DNA of 64,000 nt, taken from contig OZ252100.1 of assembly GCA_965248435.1 (NCBI GenBank), positions 5,440,001 through 5,504,000 of the forward strand, given 5' to 3'. Position numbers and translations under genes: made by a program. Positions 46,265-53,523 of the stretch are shown here, piece by piece; the first letter of the stretch is position 1, and every line of letters begins with the position of its first letter. The stretch comes from Candidatus Latescibacterota bacterium. Lineage in GTDB: Bacteria > Latescibacterota > UBA2968 > GCA-2709665. The notes under the pieces are model-generated. The model had not been told where the DNA came from. It saw nothing but the letters and a program-made list of their open reading frames with translations, and ran no database searches.

Positions 46265-49200
46265 TCAACCACACCAGTTCCTTGCGTTCTGAAACATCTT
46301 GAGCCAGGGAGAAGCCTGCAGATCGCGTTTCCAGTCCGATGGCATCCACGCCCACTGCCATTTGAGGAACGTCCTTTCAGGATGCGGCATCATGGCCAGG
46401 TGTCTGCCATCGGGTGAACAAAGCGCGGCAATGCCCGCCGGGGATCCGTTTGGGTTGGAGGGGTAGTTCTCAGCTATGGATCCGGTGTCGTCCACGTATC
46501 GGATGGGGGCGACACTCTGAGCCCTTATCCGGTCGAGGATCGCCGGGTCTGGGAAAAAGGCTCGTCCCTCACCGTGGGCGACCCATACTCCGAGCCGGGA
46601 GTTTTCCATGCCCCGCAGCATCATCGCGGGGCTTTCTTCTATCCTGACCGAAACAAATCTCGATTCGAAACGCCCCGAAGCGTTTTTGATGAACCGGGGC
46701 TGAATGGTATCAGAGACCCCTCTCCACGGAACCCAACCCAGGAGCGCCATCAACTGGCAGCCGTTGCAGACACCGAGGCTAAACGTGTCGGGGCGACAGT
46801 AAAAGGCCTCGAATTGACTCGATAGCCCTGCGTTGAAGCGGATTGTCCCTGACCAACCCTTTGCTGAATCGAGGACATCCGCGTAGCTGAACCCACCCAC
46901 AAACGCAATCCCCCGGAACCGTTCCAGATCAACTTTCTCGTCCAAGAGGTCAGACATCGTGACGTCCCAGGACTCGAATCCAGCGGCGTGAAATGCCGAT
47001 GCCATTTCCCGGTCGCCATTGCTGCCTTCTTCCCTCAAGATGGCGACCGGCGGTTTGGAGCGGCGATCCAGTATTGAAGGCGCGGTGGGTTCGGGGCTAA
47101 AAGACAGGGAAAACTCGAGTCCCGATCCCTTCCGTAATCTATTGCGTTCCTGATCCACACAACCAGGGTCGGCCTGAAGTCGATCGAGCCGGCTACTGGT
47201 CTCTTCCCACAGATCTCTCAGCTCTCCGACTTCCTCATCGAGAATCGGATTTCCGTTCTGGCTAATCCGCACTCTCCGACCGGTCGAAGTGGTTCCGATC
47301 CGCAGGCAGGGGACGCTTGCCTGCTCGAAGACCTGGCGAACGGCAGATTCGTGGTCTGATGAGACCTCAAGGACCAAACCCAGCTCCTCGGAAAAGAACA
47401 GGGCAAGGCTGTCTGCGGAGGATTCAAAGTCGACGTCGATCCCACAGTTGCCAGCGAATGCCATTTCGAGCAGGGTCGTGATCAGGCCGCCGTCGCTTCG
47501 GTCGTGACCGGAGGCAATCGACTCTGCTGCAATAAGTCGTTGAAGGCAATCAAAACTGCGCTTGAGAAGCTCAGGGTCCTCCAGATCGGGGCAGCCGTCT
47601 CCCAGCTGCCCGAAGACGTGGGCAAGAGCGGAACCGCCAAGCCTCTGCCTTCCCTGGCTCAAATCGATGTAGAGGAGGTGTCCCTGGCCTGGAAGTTTGA
47701 GATCAGGCGTAACGGTTTTCGTGATGTCGGGGGACGTGACGTATGCGGATATGACGAGCTCACCAGGCGCCTTCACAGATTCGTCCCCTCCGTTGCCGTC
47801 AGGGGCAAGTGCGGCCATGGAGAGACTGTCCTTCCCACCATCGATCGCAACGCCGAGTTGAATCAGCGTTTCACTCAAGGCCTTCGCGGCGTCGTAGAGG
47901 GCCGCGCCCTCGCCGGGTAACTTTGCAGCCCACATCCAATTCGCTGAACATTTGACGTCTTCCAACGAGGTCACTTGTGCCCAGGCCAGGTTGGTGAGCG
48001 CCTCCCCGACACTCATCCTTGCCATCGAGGCCGGATCGATCAGGCCGATGACAGGCCGCTCGCCTATAGCCGTTGCTGCGCCGGTTTGGGAAAAATGACT
48101 CTGAGCGATAACCGCCACGTCTGCCACGGTCAACTGCAACGGGCCGGTACATTGCTGTTGGGCAACGAGGCCGGTGACCGAACGGTCGACCTTGTTCGTG
48201 AGGAAGCGTTTAGACCCGACGGAGACCAGACGCAGCACCCTTTCGAGGGCCTCTCTGACCGTAAGCCCCTCCGGGAGTTGAAGCGGACGAAGAACCGGCG
48301 TGACCCTTTGGAGATGGAATGTTTTTTGAGGCATGTCCCCGAGTACGCTGCCCAGATCCAGGTCGACCGGCGTCGCGCCATCACGGTCGTCGTGGAGCAC
48401 GATTTTCCCATCGCCGGTAACGCGCCCCACGATGGCGTAGGGAGCCCCTTCCCGTTTGCAGATGCCCGCGAACAGGTCCGATGTCTCGGGCTTGATAAGG
48501 AGTGCGTCCTGTTCCTGGTATTCCGCTCCCCATATCTCGAGGATGGAGAGTGTCTCGTCGCCCACGGGGATGTCCCGCACCTCGATTATGGCGCCTTGAG
48601 GGTCGACAATCTCCTTCAGGACGTTGCAGTTTCCTCCGGCTCCCTGATCGTGAATGCTGACGATCGGATTCCGGTCACCAAGCTCTATACAGGCCCGAAT
48701 CGCCCGGTTGACCTTCTGCTCCATCTCGGCGTCGCCCCGTTGAACGGCGTTGAAATCGAGCTCGGCGACATTTTCTCCCTGAAACATGCTTGACGCGGCA
48801 CCGCCACCCATCCCGATCCTGTAGGCCGGTCCGCCAAGCTTGATCACGAGCATATCGGGCTCCGGAGCTCCTTTTTTCACGTGGCGAGCATCGATTTGCC
48901 CGATGCCCCCACTGAACATGATGGGCTTGATCCATTCTCTTCGCTCCCCGTTCGGCATCCTCAGGCCGAAAGACCGGGTATACCCCTGAATGACCGGCTC
49001 TCCGAATTTGTTGCCATAGTCGGACGCCCCGTTGCTGGCCTCGATTTCGATCTGCAGGGGTGAAGCCAGATTGGAGGGGTAGATAAACTCGGGGTCTTCC
49101 CACGGCAGGTCGTAATCGGGAATGCGAAGATTTCCTACGCAGTAGGCCGCTGTTCCTCCCACGACAAGCCCCCCTCTCCCCGCTGCGTGCACGTCTCGAA

Positions 49201-50176
49201 TCCTGCCGCCCGTTCCTGTTTCCGCGCCCGGAAAAGGTGCAACAGCGCAGGGGAAATTGTGGGTTTCGGCGGTAAAGATGATATGATATTCGAGGTTAGA
49301 CCGCACATAGGGGCCTGGTCCGCCGGGATCAGTGGGCAAAAGGGTGTCGATTTCGCAGCCCCGGATGGCGCTCGAGTTGTCTCTGAATGCGATCACGCTG
49401 TTGCCTGGATTGCGGCGAAGGGGTGCCTGGACCATGCCGATCAGGTTTTCGGGCACCGGCTGATCATCGATGACAAGCTGTCCCTTGAAGAACCAGTGGC
49501 GGGAATGTTCGCTGTTTGACTGCGCGATGTCGAAACACTCCACGTTTGTGGGATTCCGTGCCATGGTTTCGACAAAGAGATCGGTGTAGTACTCCAGATC
49601 CCACGCGTCAAACGCCAGGCCCATCTCTGTGTTTAGCCGCCTAAGGGCTGCTTTGCCTTGTTGAATCAGAGGCACTTCGCACACCGGATTCGGTTCGACC
49701 CCGGGGTCGAATGACTCCAGGGGTTCCAGATAGGTACACTCGGTCATGCGGTCGTGAACGAGATTGAGAAATTCATCTCTTTGCTTTTCATCAAAAGGGT
49801 TGCTGGATTTGATCAGATAGCGCCTCGATCGCTCGATCCGAGAAATTTTTCCCAGGCCGCACGCTTTGCAGATGGAGGCGGCGTTCGTCGACCATGCCGT
49901 CGTGAAGTTCATTCGGGGACCGACTTCGAGCAGGGTGCCCTTCCCGTCCAGAAGCGAGTTGGAGCCAAACCGATCAGGTGCGAAAGTCTCACTTAGCAGC
50001 CAACGGAGCGCCCTCATTTCATCTTCGCTGAGACCTTCGTAGGCCAACACGTTGAAGCAATATTCCGTCGCAAGGTCGCCTATCTCACCGGAGACGCGGC
50101 GCTTTGCTTTCTCGAGAAGATCCTCTCTCTCCGATGGAGAAAGTGCTGGAGCCCTGAAAAGATGGAATAGGATCAT
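46265..50176 (-). CDS. purL: Phosphoribosylformylglycinamidine synthase, large single-chain form
   Basis: QSNSEHSRH, ETHNFP, DGGKDS, GGFSYAD, LGVCNGCQ, MMPHPER; 1303 aa. Confidence 0.98.
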   Translation of the reverse strand: MILFHLFRAPALSPSEREDLLEKAKRRVSGEIGDLATEYCFNVLAYEGLSEDEMRALRWLLSETFAPDRFGSNSLLDGKGTLLEVGPRMNFTTAWSTNAASICKACGLGKISRIERSRRYLIKSSNPFDEKQRDEFLNLVHDRMTECTYLEPLESFDPGVEPNPVCEVPLIQQGKAALRRLNTEMGLAFDAWDLEYYTDLFVETMARNPTNVECFDIAQSNSEHSRHWFFKGQLVIDDQPVPENLIGMVQAPLRRNPGNSVIAFRDNSSAIRGCEIDTLLPTDPGGPGPYVRSNLEYHIIFTAETHNFPCAVAPFPGAETGTGGRIRDVHAAGRGGLVVGGTAAYCVGNLRIPDYDLPWEDPEFIYPSNLASPLQIEIEASNGASDYGNKFGEPVIQGYTRSFGLRMPNGERREWIKPIMFSGGIGQIDARHVKKGAPEPDMLVIKLGGPAYRIGMGGGAASSMFQGENVAELDFNAVQRGDAEMEQKVNRAIRACIELGDRNPIVSIHDQGAGGNCNVLKEIVDPQGAIIEVRDIPVGDETLSILEIWGAEYQEQDALLIKPETSDLFAGICKREGAPYAIVGRVTGDGKIVLHDDRDGATPVDLDLGSVLGDMPQKTFHLQRVTPVLRPLQLPEGLTVREALERVLRLVSVGSKRFLTNKVDRSVTGLVAQQQCTGPLQLTVADVAVIAQSHFSQTGAATAIGERPVIGLIDPASMARMSVGEALTNLAWAQVTSLEDVKCSANWMWAAKLPGEGAALYDAAKALSETLIQLGVAIDGGKDSLSMAALAPDGNGGDESVKAPGELVISAYVTSPDITKTVTPDLKLPGQGHLLYIDLSQGRQRLGGSALAHVFGQLGDGCPDLEDPELLKRSFDCLQRLIAAESIASGHDRSDGGLITTLLEMAFAGNCGIDVDFESSADSLALFFSEELGLVLEVSSDHESAVRQVFEQASVPCLRIGTTSTGRRVRISQNGNPILDEEVGELRDLWEETSSRLDRLQADPGCVDQERNRLRKGSGLEFSLSFSPEPTAPSILDRRSKPPVAILREEGSNGDREMASAFHAAGFESWDVTMSDLLDEKVDLERFRGIAFVGGFSYADVLDSAKGWSGTIRFNAGLSSQFEAFYCRPDTFSLGVCNGCQLMALLGWVPWRGVSDTIQPRFIKNASGRFESRFVSVRIEESPAMMLRGMENSRLGVWVAHGEGRAFFPDPAILDRIRAQSVAPIRYVDDTGSIAENYPSNPNGSPAGIAALCSPDGRHLAMMPHPERTFLKWQWAWMPSDWKRDLQASPWLKMFQNARNWCG

Positions 50177-50242
50177 CGTATTATATCGCTCTGATACTGG
50201 CGGTTCCTCTCAGCCGTAGACATGAATGTAGACCTCATTGAA

Positions 50243-50271
50243 AAACTATCAGTAGCATTACCATTTTGCAA
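50243..50271 (-). promoter_or_regulatory. sigma70-type promoter of purL
   Basis: TTGCAA-N17-TAGTTT with extended -10 TG and AT-rich upstream tract. Confidence 0.6.
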
Positions 50272-50371
50272 ATGTATTAATTTGATCATATGGATAAATT
50301 ATTATTATATATTGTTCTGGTTTTCTCGGTCGACCAGTTAATGCATTTCAGTCCAGAATACGTCTTGCTCA

Positions 50372-50559
50372 AGAGTCACGGGATTTAGACGGGCTGCGAG
50401 CGTCAAGGCGACCCCGGAAGCGCGACGTTGGTTTGAACTCGCGCAAGCGGTGTGGATTTGGGTAGGGTTAGGGAGGCAAAGTCAGCTATTCTGCAGGCGC
50501 GCGCATTGGATCCAGGCAACAATTTCAGGAGAGTAACCCGGTTTTCTGTAAGCAGTTAG
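50372..50559 (+). pseudogene. Frameshifted TPR-repeat gene remnant
   Basis: FRRAASVKATPEARRWFELAQA then frameshift at about 50450 to VDLGRVREAKSAILQARALDPGN. Confidence 0.55.
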
Positions 50560-50601
50560 GAAATTGTAAGCATCCAGGGGGGAGGAGTTTCCGGGCACAT
50601 C

Positions 50602-50630
50602 TTGACAACATACATTAATTTTCATAGGTT
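50602..50630 (+). promoter_or_regulatory. sigma70-type promoter P1 with no downstream ORF
   Basis: TTGACA-N17-TAGGTT, followed directly by TATAAT. Confidence 0.65.
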
Positions 50631-50636
50631 TATAAT

Positions 50637-50711
50637 ACGCGGGGCTCCGTGCCACCTCTGTTTATTTCCTCCCTCCCGATAAATGGAGCAAGTCACGTTG
50701 AGCCCCGTTTT
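50637..50711 (+). ncRNA. Candidate small RNA 1: long hairpin with C-rich (anti-SD-like) loop
   Basis: Stems CGGGGCTC/GAGCCCCG, CGTG/CACG, CTCTGTTTAT/ATAAATGGAG (2 GU); loop TCCTCCCTCCC; TTTT tail; promoter P1 upstream. Confidence 0.55.
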
Positions 50712-50714
50712 ATG

Positions 50715-50744
50715 TTGACAACATTCTGAATGAGTCTATACATT
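50715..50744 (+). promoter_or_regulatory. sigma70-type promoter P2
   Basis: TTGACA-N18-TACATT; first 10 nt (TTGACAACAT) identical to P1. Confidence 0.55.
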
Positions 50745-50750
50745 TGCCCC

Positions 50751-50809
50751 AGGTTCGTAAACGGCCTTCGAAGGTGATTCCCGGGAGGGAGTCTTCGAAG
50801 GCCGTTTTT
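50751..50809 (+). ncRNA. Candidate small RNA 2 and/or bidirectional terminator hairpin
   Basis: Perfect 15-bp stem AAACGGCCTTCGAAG/CTTCGAAGGCCGTTT, apical ATTCCC-GGGA-GGGAGT, T5 tail; 22 nt from the stop of the convergent gene. Confidence 0.45.
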
Positions 50810-50831
50810 GGTTCCGGCAAAATAGCTGTTG

Positions 50832-51890
50832 CTAGAACTTGAACGGTTTGTCGTGCACGGATTCATATTCTTGGCGCAGTCGAGCCAGTTTCTCATTCGG
50901 AAGCACGGTCCTCCGATTTAGCCCTCTGGCGTTTTCCGAGAGCTGCTGATGAATTTCTCTAAAGCGGGTGTACCCGTTCTTGATGTTTTCCAGTGTGATG
51001 ATGCCGTCGCCATCTGTATCAAAGAGCGCGTCAACAATCAAACGAATCGTGCGCGTCTCCATGGCATCGTATGTCCGCTGGAGAAGGCTGTGTTCATCCG
51101 CAATTTCGCGAAATCGATATCCGTGGATGTCGGTGAAACCCGTGGTGGCACTATAAACAAACCCGATTCGCTGCCTAAGTTCCTCCTGCATTTCTTGCTC
51201 GCCAAGCTGGTTTTCATTTCGGACGATCGGTCGGAAAACGTAGTTCAGCTCGAGCCCCAGTACCAATCGCGCGGGAAGAGAACCGTCCTCGTAAGCCTGG
51301 ACCTTTTTGATGGCTGTCTGCTTGAAGGCTCCGAGTTCCTCTAAAATGGACTGATAACCCACTTCCTGTATGAATGCGGTTATCCCGCTTTCGATTTGCA
51401 CCTGGTACTGTTCAAGGATGTCGATTGTCTGTTCATTCAGATCGAAGCGGCGTCCTTCGATAAAATAGTAGTCCTGCCTGTCAATTCCGTCCAGTCCGAC
51501 ATCCACGAATTCAATATACGTGGCCTTATAGTATCCCTCTGGCTTTGTTGTGTCAGGTTCGGCAGGAATGCGATAGCGCCGCGTACCCAGCCAATCTCCC
51601 GAATCTATCGTACGGTTGCCGTTGTCAAAGTAGCGAAGCAGATATCCAACGATCCCGGCTCTGACCTCCTGGGAAACGAACGTACTTCCTTCCCTTCTAT
51701 CTCTGTTGATGAGATAAAGTGCGATCTGTCCAAGCGTTTCGTCAATCCCAGCGCTGTTGCTGTACGAAAAAATACCCGATTGAGGGTCAACCTCACACCA
51801 TCCCTCTGTCGGCAAGCACCAGAGAAGAGGTATCAGACAGAGCGTTCTCGCCCAGTGAAGCGCTTGGTTAGATCGAGAAAGATGAATCAT
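50832..51890 (-). CDS. Exported hypothetical protein with EF-hand-like loop
   Basis: 352-aa ORF, SD GGAAGG upstream, signal-like N-terminus, DTDGDGIITLEN. Confidence 0.8.
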   Translation of the reverse strand: MIHLSRSNQALHWARTLCLIPLLWCLPTEGWCEVDPQSGIFSYSNSAGIDETLGQIALYLINRDRREGSTFVSQEVRAGIVGYLLRYFDNGNRTIDSGDWLGTRRYRIPAEPDTTKPEGYYKATYIEFVDVGLDGIDRQDYYFIEGRRFDLNEQTIDILEQYQVQIESGITAFIQEVGYQSILEELGAFKQTAIKKVQAYEDGSLPARLVLGLELNYVFRPIVRNENQLGEQEMQEELRQRIGFVYSATTGFTDIHGYRFREIADEHSLLQRTYDAMETRTIRLIVDALFDTDGDGIITLENIKNGYTRFREIHQQLSENARGLNRRTVLPNEKLARLRQEYESVHDKPFKF

Positions 51891-52161: not shown

Positions 52162-52239
52162 AACCGTTGCTCCCTTCTACCAAAGGAACGGGGGAGCGGG
52201 GAGGAGCGTTAAAGCAGAAGGTAGGCCAAAGGGATCTAA

Positions 52240-52268
52240 AATATAGGAAAACCCGAAGATACGGTCAA
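52240..52268 (-). promoter_or_regulatory. sigma70-type promoter of the 49-aa gene
   Basis: TTGACC-N17-TATATT. Confidence 0.7.
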
Positions 52269-52297
52269 GAGAGAAGCCGGAACAGATTCTGGGGGCT

Positions 52298-52346
52298 GGG
52301 ATTGCCTGCTAAACCAAGTCAGAGGCTCAGGGCAGCGGGCAATCCC
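52298..52346. repeat. Inverted repeat near the ribokinase breakpoint
   Basis: GGGATTGCC(T)GCT ... AGC(G)GGCAATCCC. Confidence 0.6.
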
Positions 52347-52755
52347 TTCTCGCCAGGGAAGCGAGGGCTGCGGTGCTGCAGCATCCAGTTGGGTAGGCGA
52401 GAGCGCAGCGTTCGCGCCGGGAGCCACAACAATCGTATTCTCTCCCTGCTCGTCCACCAGAATGAACGCAACACCCGAGGGTAAGTCAGGGTCGGTCAAT
52501 ACATAGCGCGTATCGATCTCCTCCTTCTCCAGTGTTTCGATCGACGTGCTACCGAAGTCATCTCCTCCGACCCTTGAGACGAACGCGACCCTTGCACCAG
52601 CGCGCGCCGCAGCCACAGCCTGGTTTGCCCCTTTACCCCCCGAAGCCGTGAAAAACCTGTCTCCAAGGCGAGTTTCTCCGGAGGAGGGCAGGCGTCTCAT
52701 CCGGATCACTAGGTCGGTGTTTGAGCTTCCGACCACCAAGACCTCGGGCTTTAGC

Positions 52756-53523
52756 TCAGTTCCCACTCATCAAATCCGGTTTTCGTGCGACATAGAATTT
52801 AAAATCTGGATCGAAGTCCACATACCAGCCAGGGGGAGCGCAACGCTCGATTCTCTCTCGGCTATTGTAATAAACGAGTTCGAAGCCTACGTCTGAAAGG
52901 ATCTTGCGAATCGAGCGTGGGGAAATAACCTGGAGGTAGTAGACTTCTAGGTTCTGCGTGGGGTCATAAATAACCTCTCCGATCTCCATTTCCGCGATAG
53001 GATGTCTCGTGAGTCTGGAGAACAGATACCGCACGAGCTGCCGAATCCTGAACGGCAGAAATCGGTTGAGGGCTTCAAGAGAGTGGGTTGTGAAGACGAG
53101 ATGACCTCCCGGCCGAAGGATTCGCCAGGCCTCTCGCAGCATTTGCCTCTTCCCTTCCTTGCCAGGTATGAGTTCAATCCCGTTGTAAGAGAAGAGGACA
53201 CCCGTATAGCTGTCGTCCGAGAAGGGAAGATCAGTTGCGTCAGCGACCACCCAGGTTGCATCGGCGCCCAATCGCCGGGCCTGAAGGCCCCCCTGAAACA
53301 CCATGGGAAAAGAAAAGTCCAGCCCCGTGACATTGAATCCCTTTTCGGCCAGTGGAATCGTCGTGCGTCCGGCCCCCGAGCCAACATCCAGAATTCTGTC
53401 TCCCAGATCCCAATAGGCGTCACAAAGCATCTCTTCAGAGGGCCACAGTCCGACTACTGTGTACTTCTTCACGACCCAATAGCGGGAGTAGCCTTGCCTT
53501 ACTCGGTTCTTGAACAGTTCCAT
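52756..53523 (-). CDS. Class I SAM-dependent methyltransferase
   Basis: ILDVGSGAGR, GLDFS, ADATDLPF, RILRPGG; start taken at MELFKN. Confidence 0.9.
   Translation of the reverse strand: MELFKNRVRQGYSRYWVVKKYTVVGLWPSEEMLCDAYWDLGDRILDVGSGAGRTTIPLAEKGFNVTGLDFSFPMVFQGGLQARRLGADATWVVADATDLPFSDDSYTGVLFSYNGIELIPGKEGKRQMLREAWRILRPGGHLVFTTHSLEALNRFLPFRIRQLVRYLFSRLTRHPIAEMEIGEVIYDPTQNLEVYYLQVISPRSIRKILSDVGFELVYYNSRERIERCAPPGWYVDFDPDFKFYVARKPDLMSGN

Follow-up and report, generated by a model that had tools for sequence, protein, structure and literature searches.

Two adjacent hairpins at 50602-50809 of the window, the whole stretch of 64,000 nucleotides that was analyzed, are very probably independent, conserved small-RNA genes on the + strand, each running from its own promoter to its own terminator, as judged from sequence comparison among relatives. 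These genes, designated here u1 and u2, each define an RNA family that is absent from Rfam and was encountered in a single order of Candidatus Latescibacterota only. The reading that we favor, with a probability of roughly 0.55, is that the two RNAs pair functionally and that u2 antagonizes u1; in this reading we infer the transcription boundaries, the actual pairing, the direction of control and the mRNA targets.

The source is an uncultured marine bacterium. Its genome has a second copy of each type, and the copies in the window are accordingly labeled u1A and u2a. The features are as follows:

50602..50630, + strand: predicted sigma-70-type promoter of u1A, with -35 TTGACA at 50602-50607, a 17-nt spacer and -10 TAGGTT at 50625-50630
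50637..50712, + strand: u1A small RNA of ~76 nt, one long imperfect hairpin at 50639-50708 and then a U-run at 50708-50711
50669..50678, + strand: C-rich (anti-Shine-Dalgarno-like) box of u1, CTCCCTCCCG as DNA and CUCCCUCCCG as RNA
50715..50744, + strand: predicted promoter of u2a, with -35 TTGACA at 50715-50720 and -10 TATACA (16-nt spacer) or TACATT (18-nt spacer)
50750..50809, + strand: u2a small RNA of ~58 nt, a terminator-type hairpin and then a U-run at 50805-50809
50782..50791, + strand: G-rich (Shine-Dalgarno-like) box of u2, CGGGAGGGAG, located at the apex of the hairpin and exactly reverse-complementary to 50669-50678
contig C1 1115003-1115078, - strand: paralogue u1B, the second u1-type copy in the source genome
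contig C1 3326891-3326953, + strand: paralogue u2b, the second u2-type copy in the source genome

Both units begin with the 10-mer TTGACAACAT (50602-50611, repeated at 50715-50724), which is confined to the source genome, the relatives having only the hexamer TTGAC(A/G) in common. These starts, the hairpins, the T-tracts and the exact complementarity of loop and apex had all been described in a sequence-only reading of the locus and were borne out by inspection and folding, as was its statement that there is no convincing ORF, the ORFs overlapping the locus all being at most 67 aa. Its suggestion that each unit has a plausible -10 held for u2a and needs a correction for u1, where 23 nt, too long a distance, separate the -35 from the TATAAT at 50631-50636. 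The predicted u1A -10, TAGGTT, is a weak consensus match, and because it agrees at only 3 of 6 positions the u1A promoter was not flagged by the consensus scan. In all 10 of the u1A representatives compared, drawn from 8 genera or clades, the -35 and -10 keep their positions and their spacing, one of the ten having TTGCCT as its -35. The start is predicted near 50637. The u2a promoter scored 10/12 in the same scan, and its -35 lies directly 3' of the u1 terminator.

Unit 1 (50639-50708) has a predicted folding energy of -31.0 kcal/mol (z -5.4) and unit 2 (50759-50807) one of -34.3 kcal/mol (z -4.8), with none of 200 shuffles folding equally well in either case. The fold of u1A leaves open an 11-nt loop, UCCUCCCUCCC, at 50667-50677. 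The u2a stem pairs 50762-50773 with 50793-50804, extended to 50759-50807, and part of its G-rich box pairs within the apex in the source genome, with a more open apical region predicted by folding in most relatives. The core of the u1 box, CCCUCCC, is near-invariant across the u1 family and the CCUCC within it is the core of the genome's own 16S 3' end, GGAUCACCUCCUUUCU; the GGAGG in the u2 box is complementary to that canonical 16S 3' end. Scored against covariance models, u1A reached 66 bits with R1 and 75 bits with R3, and u2a reached 51 bits with R2.

The hairpins are conserved as structures. Among 86 u1 homologues, 93% of pair cells are paired, as against 73% in shuffles and 43-54% when the partners were slid, and double-sided changes were seen in 17 of the 18 pairs; the strand of u1 can be fixed as + because G-U pairs are abundant and work only on that strand. 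For u2, compensatory changes were found in 8 of the 16 stem pairs across 32 homologues, and the core GGGAGGG is kept in 47 of 48 copies, the exception being one copy of genome G044 that reads GGGAGAG. All 48 u2 copies have TTGACA without a mismatch and, after a spacer of 16-18 nt, a -10 of the form TAnnnT, and a T-run follows 47 of them; a T-run also follows 75 of the 86 u1 copies and is missing in 11, including u1A of four genus g3 genomes. Each of the two hairpins in the window is followed by a + strand T-run, at 50708-50711 for u1A and at 50805-50809 for u2a. By prediction, u1 is a small-RNA unit with its own promoter, a Rho-independent terminator and no conserved ORF, and its C-rich motif is open in the folds and conserved while the stems covary. 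The sequence-only reading had proposed an anti-Shine-Dalgarno sRNA of ~75 nt with a decoy of ~58 nt encoded beside it; the comparative evidence supports the two small-RNA genes, and the roles of regulator and decoy are ones that we infer.

In searches with blastn, each hairpin was matched separately in relatives. Of 53 genomes from the order searched with covariance models, 48 have u1 (family f1, 22/22; family f2, 26/31) and 45 have u2. All 45 u2-positive genomes were also positive for u1; three had u1 only (G002, G006 and G038, in which u2 was not found even at E up to 1), five had neither and none had u2 only. A sample of 102 genomes belonging to other families of the phylum gave no u1 and a single u2, a doubtful match that scores on both strands and resembles a plain terminator. 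The first u1 model, R1, missed most of family f1 (5/21 found with strict filters, 12/21 with lax ones) and gave many weak 34-nt matches that were ordinary terminators; the rebuilt R3 found u1 in 22/22. Weak matches of the u2 model R2 at L105, L107, L108 and L113-L116 were ordinary terminators without a G-rich box and were excluded from the u2 count.

In 26 of 45 genomes, from both families (G000, G008, all 21 of genus g6, G042, G043 and G044), u1, its terminator, TTGACA and u2 follow one another on a single strand, and u1 and u2 were non-adjacent in 19 of 45. Tandem neighborhoods differ between lineages: in the source genome the pair sits between purL and an ORF without a Pfam family, and in genus g6 it lies after an M16-like ORF (read by eye from the translation) and before a transporter ORF. 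Genus g6 also has a third G-box hairpin, for which no consistent matching with the g6 u1B loops was apparent by eye.

The complementarity between the two RNAs, a point on which the sequence-only reading had staked its proposal, is conserved in the relatives. The best contiguous Watson-Crick run between u1 and u2 is at least 8 in all 45 genomes having both and at least 9 in 44 of them (8 in one genome, 9 in nine, 10 in nine, 11 in 19, 12 in four and 13 in three), and the duplex energies across genomes range from -18 to -32 kcal/mol. In the source genome, u2 is a stand-alone RNA, as a sponge would be, complementary to the u1 loop box over 10 bp, and an 11-nt loop cannot make 10 bp without strain or stem opening. 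Any anti-SD-like box will by nature complement an SD-like one, and such a match by itself is therefore no demonstration that the two are partners.

Evidence for co-evolution of the u1 and u2 flanks is weak and weakly significant. When cognate and non-cognate combinations were compared across 16 lineages, the mean Watson-Crick run was 10.1 versus 9.6 (permutation p 0.03) and the duplex energy -24.4 versus -23.8 kcal/mol (p 0.08), p values that are generous because the lineages are related. Compensatory apex changes, for which the sequence-only reading had advised searching homologues, are present in some flanks. In G008, u1 CUUCCUUCCCA stands opposite UGGGAGGGAAG of the adjacent u2, so that relative to the window a G-C pair has become A-U on one side and a C-G pair U-A on the other; in genus g3, the u1A box CUCCCUCCCGGCG is a perfect 13-nt complement of the g3 u2; and in G009, UUCCCUCCCG pairs with CGGGAGGGAA. 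The complementary cores never vary and therefore cannot covary, with the consequence that classical covariation cannot prove pairing. Other changes are uncompensated: the GGGAGAG of the adjacent u2 in G044 creates a central mismatch, and G050 has GGGAGGGAA opposite an unchanged u1. In addition, a variant from an RNA library has the loop UUUCUCCCCUCCCG with an unchanged u2 apex, and for the u1 of the window, the u2 of genus g6 would be a better pairing partner (11-13 bp) than the window's own u2 (10 bp).

In the mechanism that we propose, u1 would be transcribed from its own promoter into a single long hairpin presenting UCCUCCCUCCC in an open loop, and it most likely pairs with G-rich ribosome-binding sites of mRNAs and blocks translation initiation, a role suggested because the loop contains the anti-Shine-Dalgarno core CCUCC. 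This action would be Hfq-independent, as in the cuckoo/CcsR, RsaE/RoxS and RNAIII-type RNAs. The second RNA would be made from the strong promoter directly after the u1 terminator and would consist of little beyond a terminator hairpin with CGGGAGGGAG at its tip; most likely it acts as a decoy (sponge) that meets u1 loop-to-loop over 9-13 bp and sets the level of free u1.

The simplest objection is that the hairpins are mere terminators or insulators, hairpin 2 serving the convergent 352-aa gene and the loop match being a chance product of low complexity, as the sequence-only reading had itself cautioned. Hairpin 2 does end 24 nt from the stop codon of that - strand ORF (at 50832) and could also stop its transcript, and the loop match is of low complexity. 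Nevertheless, we find this view hardly credible, given that beyond hairpin 2 the - strand offers only UUU and beyond hairpin 1 no U-run, that the stem G-U pairs function on the + strand alone, that the promoters are conserved, all 48 u2 copies having their own TTGACA, and that u2 homologues follow u1 or their own promoter in unrelated gene contexts. Loop sequences have been kept in two families whose stems have drifted, and the plain terminators caught by the models differ in look and have no boxes. As for chance, CGGGAGGGAG occurs 10 times on the + strand and 21 times on the - strand of the 5.66-Mb contig, or ~3 per million positions, which gives an expectation of ~5 in 100,000 for its occurrence in a 20-nt apex 113 nt downstream; we do not regard the match as a chance one. 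A BLAST search of the 271-nt region against its own genome matched only itself, so the locus is not a dispersed repeat. We also consider it very improbable that u2 acts in cis on the downstream gene, as a leader or attenuator, with u1 modulating read-through by binding at the terminator apex. The arrangement in genus g3, where an aldo/keto reductase ORF follows u2 in the same orientation at a distance of ~40 nt, would suit such a role, as would genus g5, where the start of the ORF downstream of the G008 tandem and of the G005 u1A resembles, by eye, an aldo/keto reductase N-terminus. Against this, the next gene in the window is convergent and leaves nothing to attenuate, u2b precedes a pentapeptide-repeat ORF, the g6 copies precede other elements and no downstream gene is common to the whole family.

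A more serious alternative, though still an unlikely one in our judgment, is that these are independent sRNAs: u1 would repress mRNAs, u2 would have partners of its own (C-rich mRNA segments or an unknown protein), their complementarity would be a by-product of SD-like and anti-SD-like boxes and the tandem a matter of genomic history. Invariant cores are what would be expected if many other partners hold each RNA, and the weak flank co-evolution, the uncompensated changes, the three genomes with u1 and no u2 and the separation of the genes in 19 of 45 genomes point the same way. Yet u2 is never found without u1 (0/45), both are restricted to the same order, and the tandem has been retained in both families though its neighbors changed; moreover, abundant RNAs with 9-13 complementary apex bases should meet if they are co-expressed. 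The roles could also be reversed, u2 being the effector, as an SD mimic that competes for the 16S anti-SD of the 30S subunit or for a G-rich-RNA-binding protein, and u1 its antidote. Such a reversal would account for the u2 promoter being the strongest and most uniform (perfect TTGACA in 48/48), for the complementarity of its GGAGG to the 16S 3' end and for the extra G-loop copies that some genera appear, from our reading of the matches, to have. We regard it as improbable in view of the 5-6 bp that u2 could form with the 16S tail versus 9-13 bp with u1, of a search of the genome in which a CsrA homologue was not found and of the occurrence of u1 without u2 and never the converse, which fits u1 as the primary actor. 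The reading of u2 as an antagonist of u1 is the one carried forward below.

In terms of known systems, u1 and u2 would be an anti-Shine-Dalgarno-type sRNA and a G-rich decoy working like RoxS/RosA. The roxS and rosA genes are not known to be adjacent, unlike u1 and u2 in the 26 of 45 genomes with the tandem. In RoxS/FsrA with RosA (Bacillus subtilis) and RsaE with RsaI (Staphylococcus aureus), C-rich sRNA regions pair with the SD regions of mRNAs, and a stand-alone G-rich sRNA of the RosA/RsaI type pairs with the C-rich regions and neutralizes them, with no known RNA hub protein such as Hfq (PMC8216469); the logic is the one proposed here for u1 and u2. There is no sequence or structure homology between the systems (no Rfam match), and u1/u2 belong to a different and uncultured phylum. 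RosA, as described in the same text, is ~229 nt long, processed and has 2-3 G-rich regions, unlike u2 with ~58 nt and one box in a terminator apex (PMC8216469). The cuckoo RNAs of alphaproteobacteria (CcsR/RSs0680, SmelC397/NfeR1-type) have compensatory stems and a C-rich anti-SD-like loop motif, CCUCCUCCC, are often in tandem and include one family member that is directly Hfq-bound (PMC4615179). They resemble u1 in its variable stems and invariant CCCUCCC, and differ from it in having, according to that text, 2-4 like hairpins per RNA where u1 has one (PMC4615179). In addition, u1 differs in that its tandem partner has a complementary G-rich motif, unlike the cuckoo tandems, and that it has no Rfam match; in contrast to the Hfq-bound cuckoo member, Hfq was not found in the source genome.

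To our knowledge, Latescibacterota (WS3) are known only from MAGs, and a literature search found no described regulatory RNAs for them, nor was there an Rfam match; u1 and u2 would be the first candidate trans-acting sRNAs of the phylum. They offer a testable module of an anti-SD-type regulator and a complementary decoy, usually head-to-tail. If the favored reading is true, the Firmicutes logic of a C-rich sRNA with a G-rich sponge arose independently in a distant Hfq-less lineage, and regulator and antagonist are inherited as one compact cassette. The two covariance models can serve as markers to find and quantify u1 and u2 in marine metatranscriptomes, and at 130 nt the cassette lends itself to direct in vitro and heterologous work.

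A scan against Rfam 15, one of the checks suggested in the sequence-only reading, was run and gave no matches at gathering thresholds in the whole window and none at E up to 10 in 50150-50900. Across five paralogue loci, the only model to score was MmgR/suhB (RF00519), on the u1B of a relative, at 21.9 bits where the gathering threshold is 41 (E 0.28). MmgR is an sRNA of ~77 nt, a size like that of u1, and has a C-rich single-stranded motif; membership of u1 in that family was rejected on the score, and the u1 of the window was unmatched. The small RNAs CsrB, RsmY and RsmZ resemble u2 in having GGA motifs in hairpin loops, a strong promoter and a terminator, and differ in having many GGA repeats where u2 has a single hairpin. 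A CsrB/RsmZ-type sponge for CsrA was ruled out as a reading of u2 by family searches of the 97.5%-complete genome, in which neither CsrA (PF02599; positive controls matched in three reference genomes) nor Hfq (positive controls matched) was found.

Among sequencing runs recorded as RNA, only one contained any part of the stretch. A close relative is represented in it by one 206-nt metatranscriptome contig, which spans 50605-797; within the 601 nt compared, it takes in the two units alone. The contig is unstranded and could be DNA carry-over; it starts ~10 nt upstream of the u1 -35 and is for that reason not a clean primary transcript. Run X6 gave no cover and run X9 has a gap in cover at 50610-50714, neither of which carries weight as an absence. 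With respect to targets, perfect complements of at least 9 nt to the u1 loop region occur at 695 genomic sites, the best being a 13-nt match 12 nt upstream of a 688-aa ORF, where ~1.5 such matches are expected by chance. We take this ORF, by eye, to have nucleotidyltransferase / CDP-alcohol-phosphatidyltransferase / HAD-like domains; its homologues in relatives are shorter and ~40% identical. It was dropped as a u1 target, the match being at chance level and there being no close orthologue in which to assess conservation of the site.

With two copies of each type in the source genome, the proposed system is a small network in which C-loop and G-loop RNAs both take part. We speculate, with little confidence, that the G-loop RNAs mimic ribosome-binding sites and the C-loop RNAs the 16S 3' end, the two neutralizing each other in a protein-free SD:anti-SD mimicry circuit. 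Translation initiation, global or class-specific, would then be set by the ratio of C-loop to G-loop RNAs, each would depend on the other for its synthesis through the overlap of terminator and promoter in the tandem, and matched flanks (C...G in the A/a pair and U...A in the B/b pair of the source genome) would create partly orthogonal channels. A home-made genome scan for terminator hairpins with C- or G-boxes recovered u2b; its limits on loop size made it overlook u1 and u2a, and so it has no bearing on whether further copies are absent. Within the source genome, u1A:u2a and u1B:u2b each form 10 Watson-Crick pairs and the cross pairs form 8 plus wobbles, and the best duplex of either u1 with either u2 has an RNAduplex energy of -23.0 kcal/mol.

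Both units lie within a 655-nt gap on contig OZ252100.1 (C1) of a 5.67-Mb genome in two contigs, and inspection of the window sequence bore out every coordinate in the sequence-only reading, which had proposed a small RNA and its anti-RNA encoded in tandem. Unit 1 (u1) is a C-loop RNA and unit 2 (u2) a G-loop RNA; each has a second copy in the same genome outside the window (loci L174 and L175). The features are as follows:

46265..50176, minus strand: purL (FGAM synthase, by Pfam), the start of which forms the left edge of the gap
50602 and 50715, plus strand: TTGACAACAT
50637-50712, plus strand: predicted u1 RNA, about 76 nt
50669-50678, plus strand: u1 box, CTCCCTCCCG
50750-50809, plus strand: predicted u2 RNA, about 58 nt
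50782-50791, plus strand: u2 box, CGGGAGGGAG, complement of the u1 box
50832..51890, minus strand: 352-aa ORF without Pfam family, the stop of which forms the right edge of the gap
C1 1115003-1115078, minus strand: u1B, second u1 copy, loop UUUCCCUCCCA
C1 3326891-3326953, plus strand: u2b, second u2 copy, apex UUGGGAGGGAAC, with its own TTGACAAG promoter and a T-run

Unit 1 folded into a long hairpin at 50639-50708 (-31.0 kcal/mol, z -5.4) whose loop, UCCUCCCUCCC, is open, and unit 2 into a terminator-type hairpin at 50759-50807 (-34.3 kcal/mol, z -4.8); for neither unit did any of 200 shuffles fold as well. T-runs stand behind both hairpins on the plus strand only, and the reverse strand folded more weakly, with loss of the unit 1 apical stem. 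Only ORFs of at most 67 aa overlap the region, in agreement with the earlier judgement that it holds no convincing ORF, and the RNA lengths estimated at that time were close to those predicted here. The u2 box occurs 10 and 21 times on the two strands of the genome, compared with 11 expected per strand; given this lack of enrichment, its position 113 nt downstream of its complement is unlikely to be due to chance.

Judged from comparative sequence evidence, u1 and u2 are well supported as candidate genes rather than mere hairpins. In an alignment of 86 u1 sequences (82 distinct) fitted to the covariance model, a procedure that favours the structure, 93.0% of pair cells were standard pairs, versus 73.4% in column shuffles and 43-54% with slid partners, and double-sided changes were present at 17 of the 18 pairs. 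An independent MAFFT/RNAalifold alignment of 25 u1 sequences gave compensation at 14 of 18 pairs, and 32 u2 sequences at 8 of 16. The u1 stems are rich in G-U pairs (for instance, UG at columns 8/73 in 47 sequences and GU at columns 26/51 in 39), and since these would be A-C mismatches on the opposite strand, the RNA strand is the plus strand. Within the 60 nt upstream of each of the 48 u2 copies stand a perfect TTGACA and, after a spacer of 16-18 nt, a TAnnnT -10; a T-run follows 47 of the copies. For u1A, the paralogue type found in the window, all 10 representatives had a -35 (CTTGAC[A/G]) and a TA(C/T)nTT-type -10 separated by an unvarying 17 nt; in the window these elements are TTGACA and TAGGTT. 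The conserved element is not the TATAAT, 23 nt away from the -35, that was probably taken as the -10 previously. A T-run follows 75 of the 86 u1 copies, the 11 others including u1A of four genomes of genus g3.

In blastn searches of 40 relatives each hairpin was matched independently of the other, with 97% identity for the unit 1 apex in genus g6, which belongs to another family, and 83-87% for the unit 2 hairpin in genus g3. Covariance models were built for unit 1 (R1, alignment A1) and unit 2 (R2, A2), and the u1 model was rebuilt after divergent copies had been gathered (R3; 25 sequences, A3). With R3, u1 was identified in all 22 genomes of family f1 and in 26 of 31 of family f2, and, under strict filters, in none of 102 genomes sampled across the phylum's 12 other families. 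R2 identified u2 in 45 of the 53 genomes of the order and, at E up to 1e-5, in one of the 102 sampled genomes outside it; that sole match scored on both strands and resembles a plain terminator. Every one of the 45 u2-positive genomes has u1, three genomes (G002, G006 and G038) have u1 without an R2 match even at E up to 1, and five genomes of the order have neither. All 13 matches to a unit 1 loop sequence pattern were in Candidatus Latescibacterota or Latescibacteria MAGs, and the compared runs that contain close relatives carry a marine label.

Loci of family f2 show the same tandem (promoter, C-loop hairpin, T-run, TTGACA, G-apex hairpin, T-run) with outer stems that differ in sequence from those of the window. 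An arrangement in which u2 follows u1A on the same strand and the u2 -35 abuts the u1 T-run was found in 26 of the 45 genomes with both RNAs: the window's genome, G008 (genus g5), all 21 g6 genomes, G042 and G043 (g10) and G044 (g11). The tandem thus occurs in both families while its flanking genes differ, being purL and the ORF without Pfam family in the window, and in g6 a transporter ORF and a 934-aa ORF that reads by eye like an M16 peptidase. Genomes of genus g3 have the two genes widely separated, with u2 some 40 nt in front of an aldo/keto reductase gene, and u2b of the window's genome is flanked by a dihydroxy-acid/6-phosphogluconate dehydratase-type ORF and a pentapeptide-repeat ORF. 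Because no downstream gene is common to the family, a trans-acting RNA is favoured over a cis-acting leader. On the purL side, a promoter-like site (50304-50333, minus strand; TCGACC, 18-nt spacer, TATAAT, 10/12) lies about 130 nt upstream of the gene. Read towards purL, this site comes after the cassette, so that purL is probably transcribed from a promoter of its own, with the cassette outside its leader.

The complementarity proposed for the two apices was upheld in relatives, with a run of at least 8 bp in 45 of 45 genomes, mainly because both cores, CCCUCCC in u1 and GGGAGGG in u2, are nearly invariant. The longest contiguous Watson-Crick run per genome (the best of any u1 against any u2, using the loop regions of all copies) was 8 bp in one genome (G044), 9 in nine, 10 in nine, 11 in 19, 12 in four and 13 in three, and RNAduplex energies for same-genome pairs were -17.6 to -31.9 kcal/mol. 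Frozen cores fit mutual pairing, and fit equally well each core being held by other partners. Some changes in the flanks look compensatory. These include the following: in G008, u1 CUUCCUUCCCA faces the adjacent u2 UGGGAGGGAAG, with G-C to A-U on one side and C-G to U-A on the other relative to the window, plus one G-U; in g3, the u1A box CUCCCUCCCGGCG and the u2 of that genus are perfectly complementary over 13 nt; in G009, UUCCCUCCCG pairs with CGGGAGGGAA; and in the window's genome the flanks of u1A match u2a, the window's u2 copy (C...G), and those of u1B match u2b (U...A), giving 10 Watson-Crick bp each versus 8 bp plus wobbles for the cross pairs. The signal is nevertheless not clean: in G044 the u2 next to u1 reads GGGAGAG, with a mismatch in the centre, an uncompensated change occurs in G050, and the window's u1 would pair better with a g6 u2 than with its own. 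In a 16-lineage matrix, in which the lineages are not independent, cognate sets were only slightly ahead of non-cognate sets, with mean runs of 10.1 versus 9.6 (permutation p 0.03) and energies of -24.4 versus -23.8 kcal/mol (p 0.08).

Among 22 runs listed, 20 contain at least part of a 601-nt stretch around the cassette, and one of these is recorded as RNA. In this metatranscriptome a single 206-nt contig (depth 4.1) covers 50605-50797, with 13 further letters matching 50592-50604, and thus spans the two units but no other part of the stretch; its seven substitutions and two indels indicate that it derives from a close relative. The contig starts roughly 10 nt before the u1 -35, contigs carry neither strand nor true ends, and it may be DNA carry-over; as a sign of transcription it is a weak positive. 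Its u1 loop reads UUUCUCCCCUCCCG with the u2 apex unchanged, another uncompensated change.

The 16S rRNA 3' end of the genome is the canonical GGAUCACCUCCUUUCU; CCUCC, the anti-SD core, is present in the u1 loop, and GGAGG, the SD core, in the u2 box. Neither Hfq nor CsrA was detected in this 97.5%-complete genome, whereas the positive controls of the searches were, a result that speaks against a CsrB-like protein sponge and favours direct action between RNAs. Cuckoo RNAs are C-rich-loop sRNAs that occlude ribosome-binding sites and have an invariant CCUCCUCCC loop with freely covarying stems (PMC4615179). RoxS and FsrA act likewise, and RosA is a stand-alone G-rich sponge that neutralises and destabilises RoxS; RsaI of S. 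aureus may be a similar sponge, a role that the same paper describes as still to be proven (PMC8216469). By analogy with these systems, we read u1 as a putative anti-SD-type translational repressor that would target the ribosome-binding sites of mRNAs, and u2 as its likely decoy, which would lower u1 activity through pairing in vivo. The finding of u1 without u2, and never the reverse, fits u1 as the primary actor. A search for an mRNA target of u1 in the same genome gave no convincing candidate. The kind of system, a C-rich sRNA plus a G-rich sponge, is already known; new are both RNA families, their occurrence in an uncultured phylum without Hfq, and a compact head-to-tail cassette kept in two families. 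Rfam gave no match at the cassette region even at E up to 10, and the only score was that of a relative's u1B copy to RF00519, at 21.9 bits, far under the threshold of 41; a literature search on small or non-coding RNAs of this phylum returned nothing relevant.

The C-loop RNA has two paralogue types, u1A and u1B, and two C-loop RNAs are also present in all 21 g6 genomes. In many genomes of the order the distance from u1B to a gene of about 494 aa is constant at 10-17 kb (for example G001, 2351016 versus 2340645; G013, 327287 versus 344268), a conserved synteny rather than adjacency. That gene is a homologue of a 688-aa ORF of the window's genome, which reads by eye as a putative nucleotidyltransferase/CDP-alcohol phosphatidyltransferase. 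In run X5, record 3, a 5.1-kb contig with a g6-type u1 occurs at about 8-fold higher depth beside the window's close relative, so members of both families co-occur in that sample. Within the window, a 176-aa ORF (52236-52766, minus strand) aligns with the PfkB carbohydrate-kinase profile over no more than its initial 121 positions out of 302, which may reflect truncation or a frameshift in a kinase gene, or a mis-called start.

Genus g6 has a third conserved hairpin, GAGGCGCUGGU[C/U]GGGAGGG[A/U]AUAACCAACGCCUC, with the G-rich box in its loop (L011 6128-6161; L004 about 2857-2890; also L019 and L037). It is located directly after u2 or about 1.2 kb off, some 400 nt ahead of a transporter ORF (L011 6571..), without a T-run behind it; 10-11 bp are possible with the g6 u1A loop, for which the hairpin may serve as a target site or an additional decoy. 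In genus g5 (L102 and L103), another promoter (TTGACA, 17-nt spacer, TATTTT) and a short GC-rich hairpin behind it lie about 40-110 nt past u2b, and may represent a further small RNA gene adjoining it.
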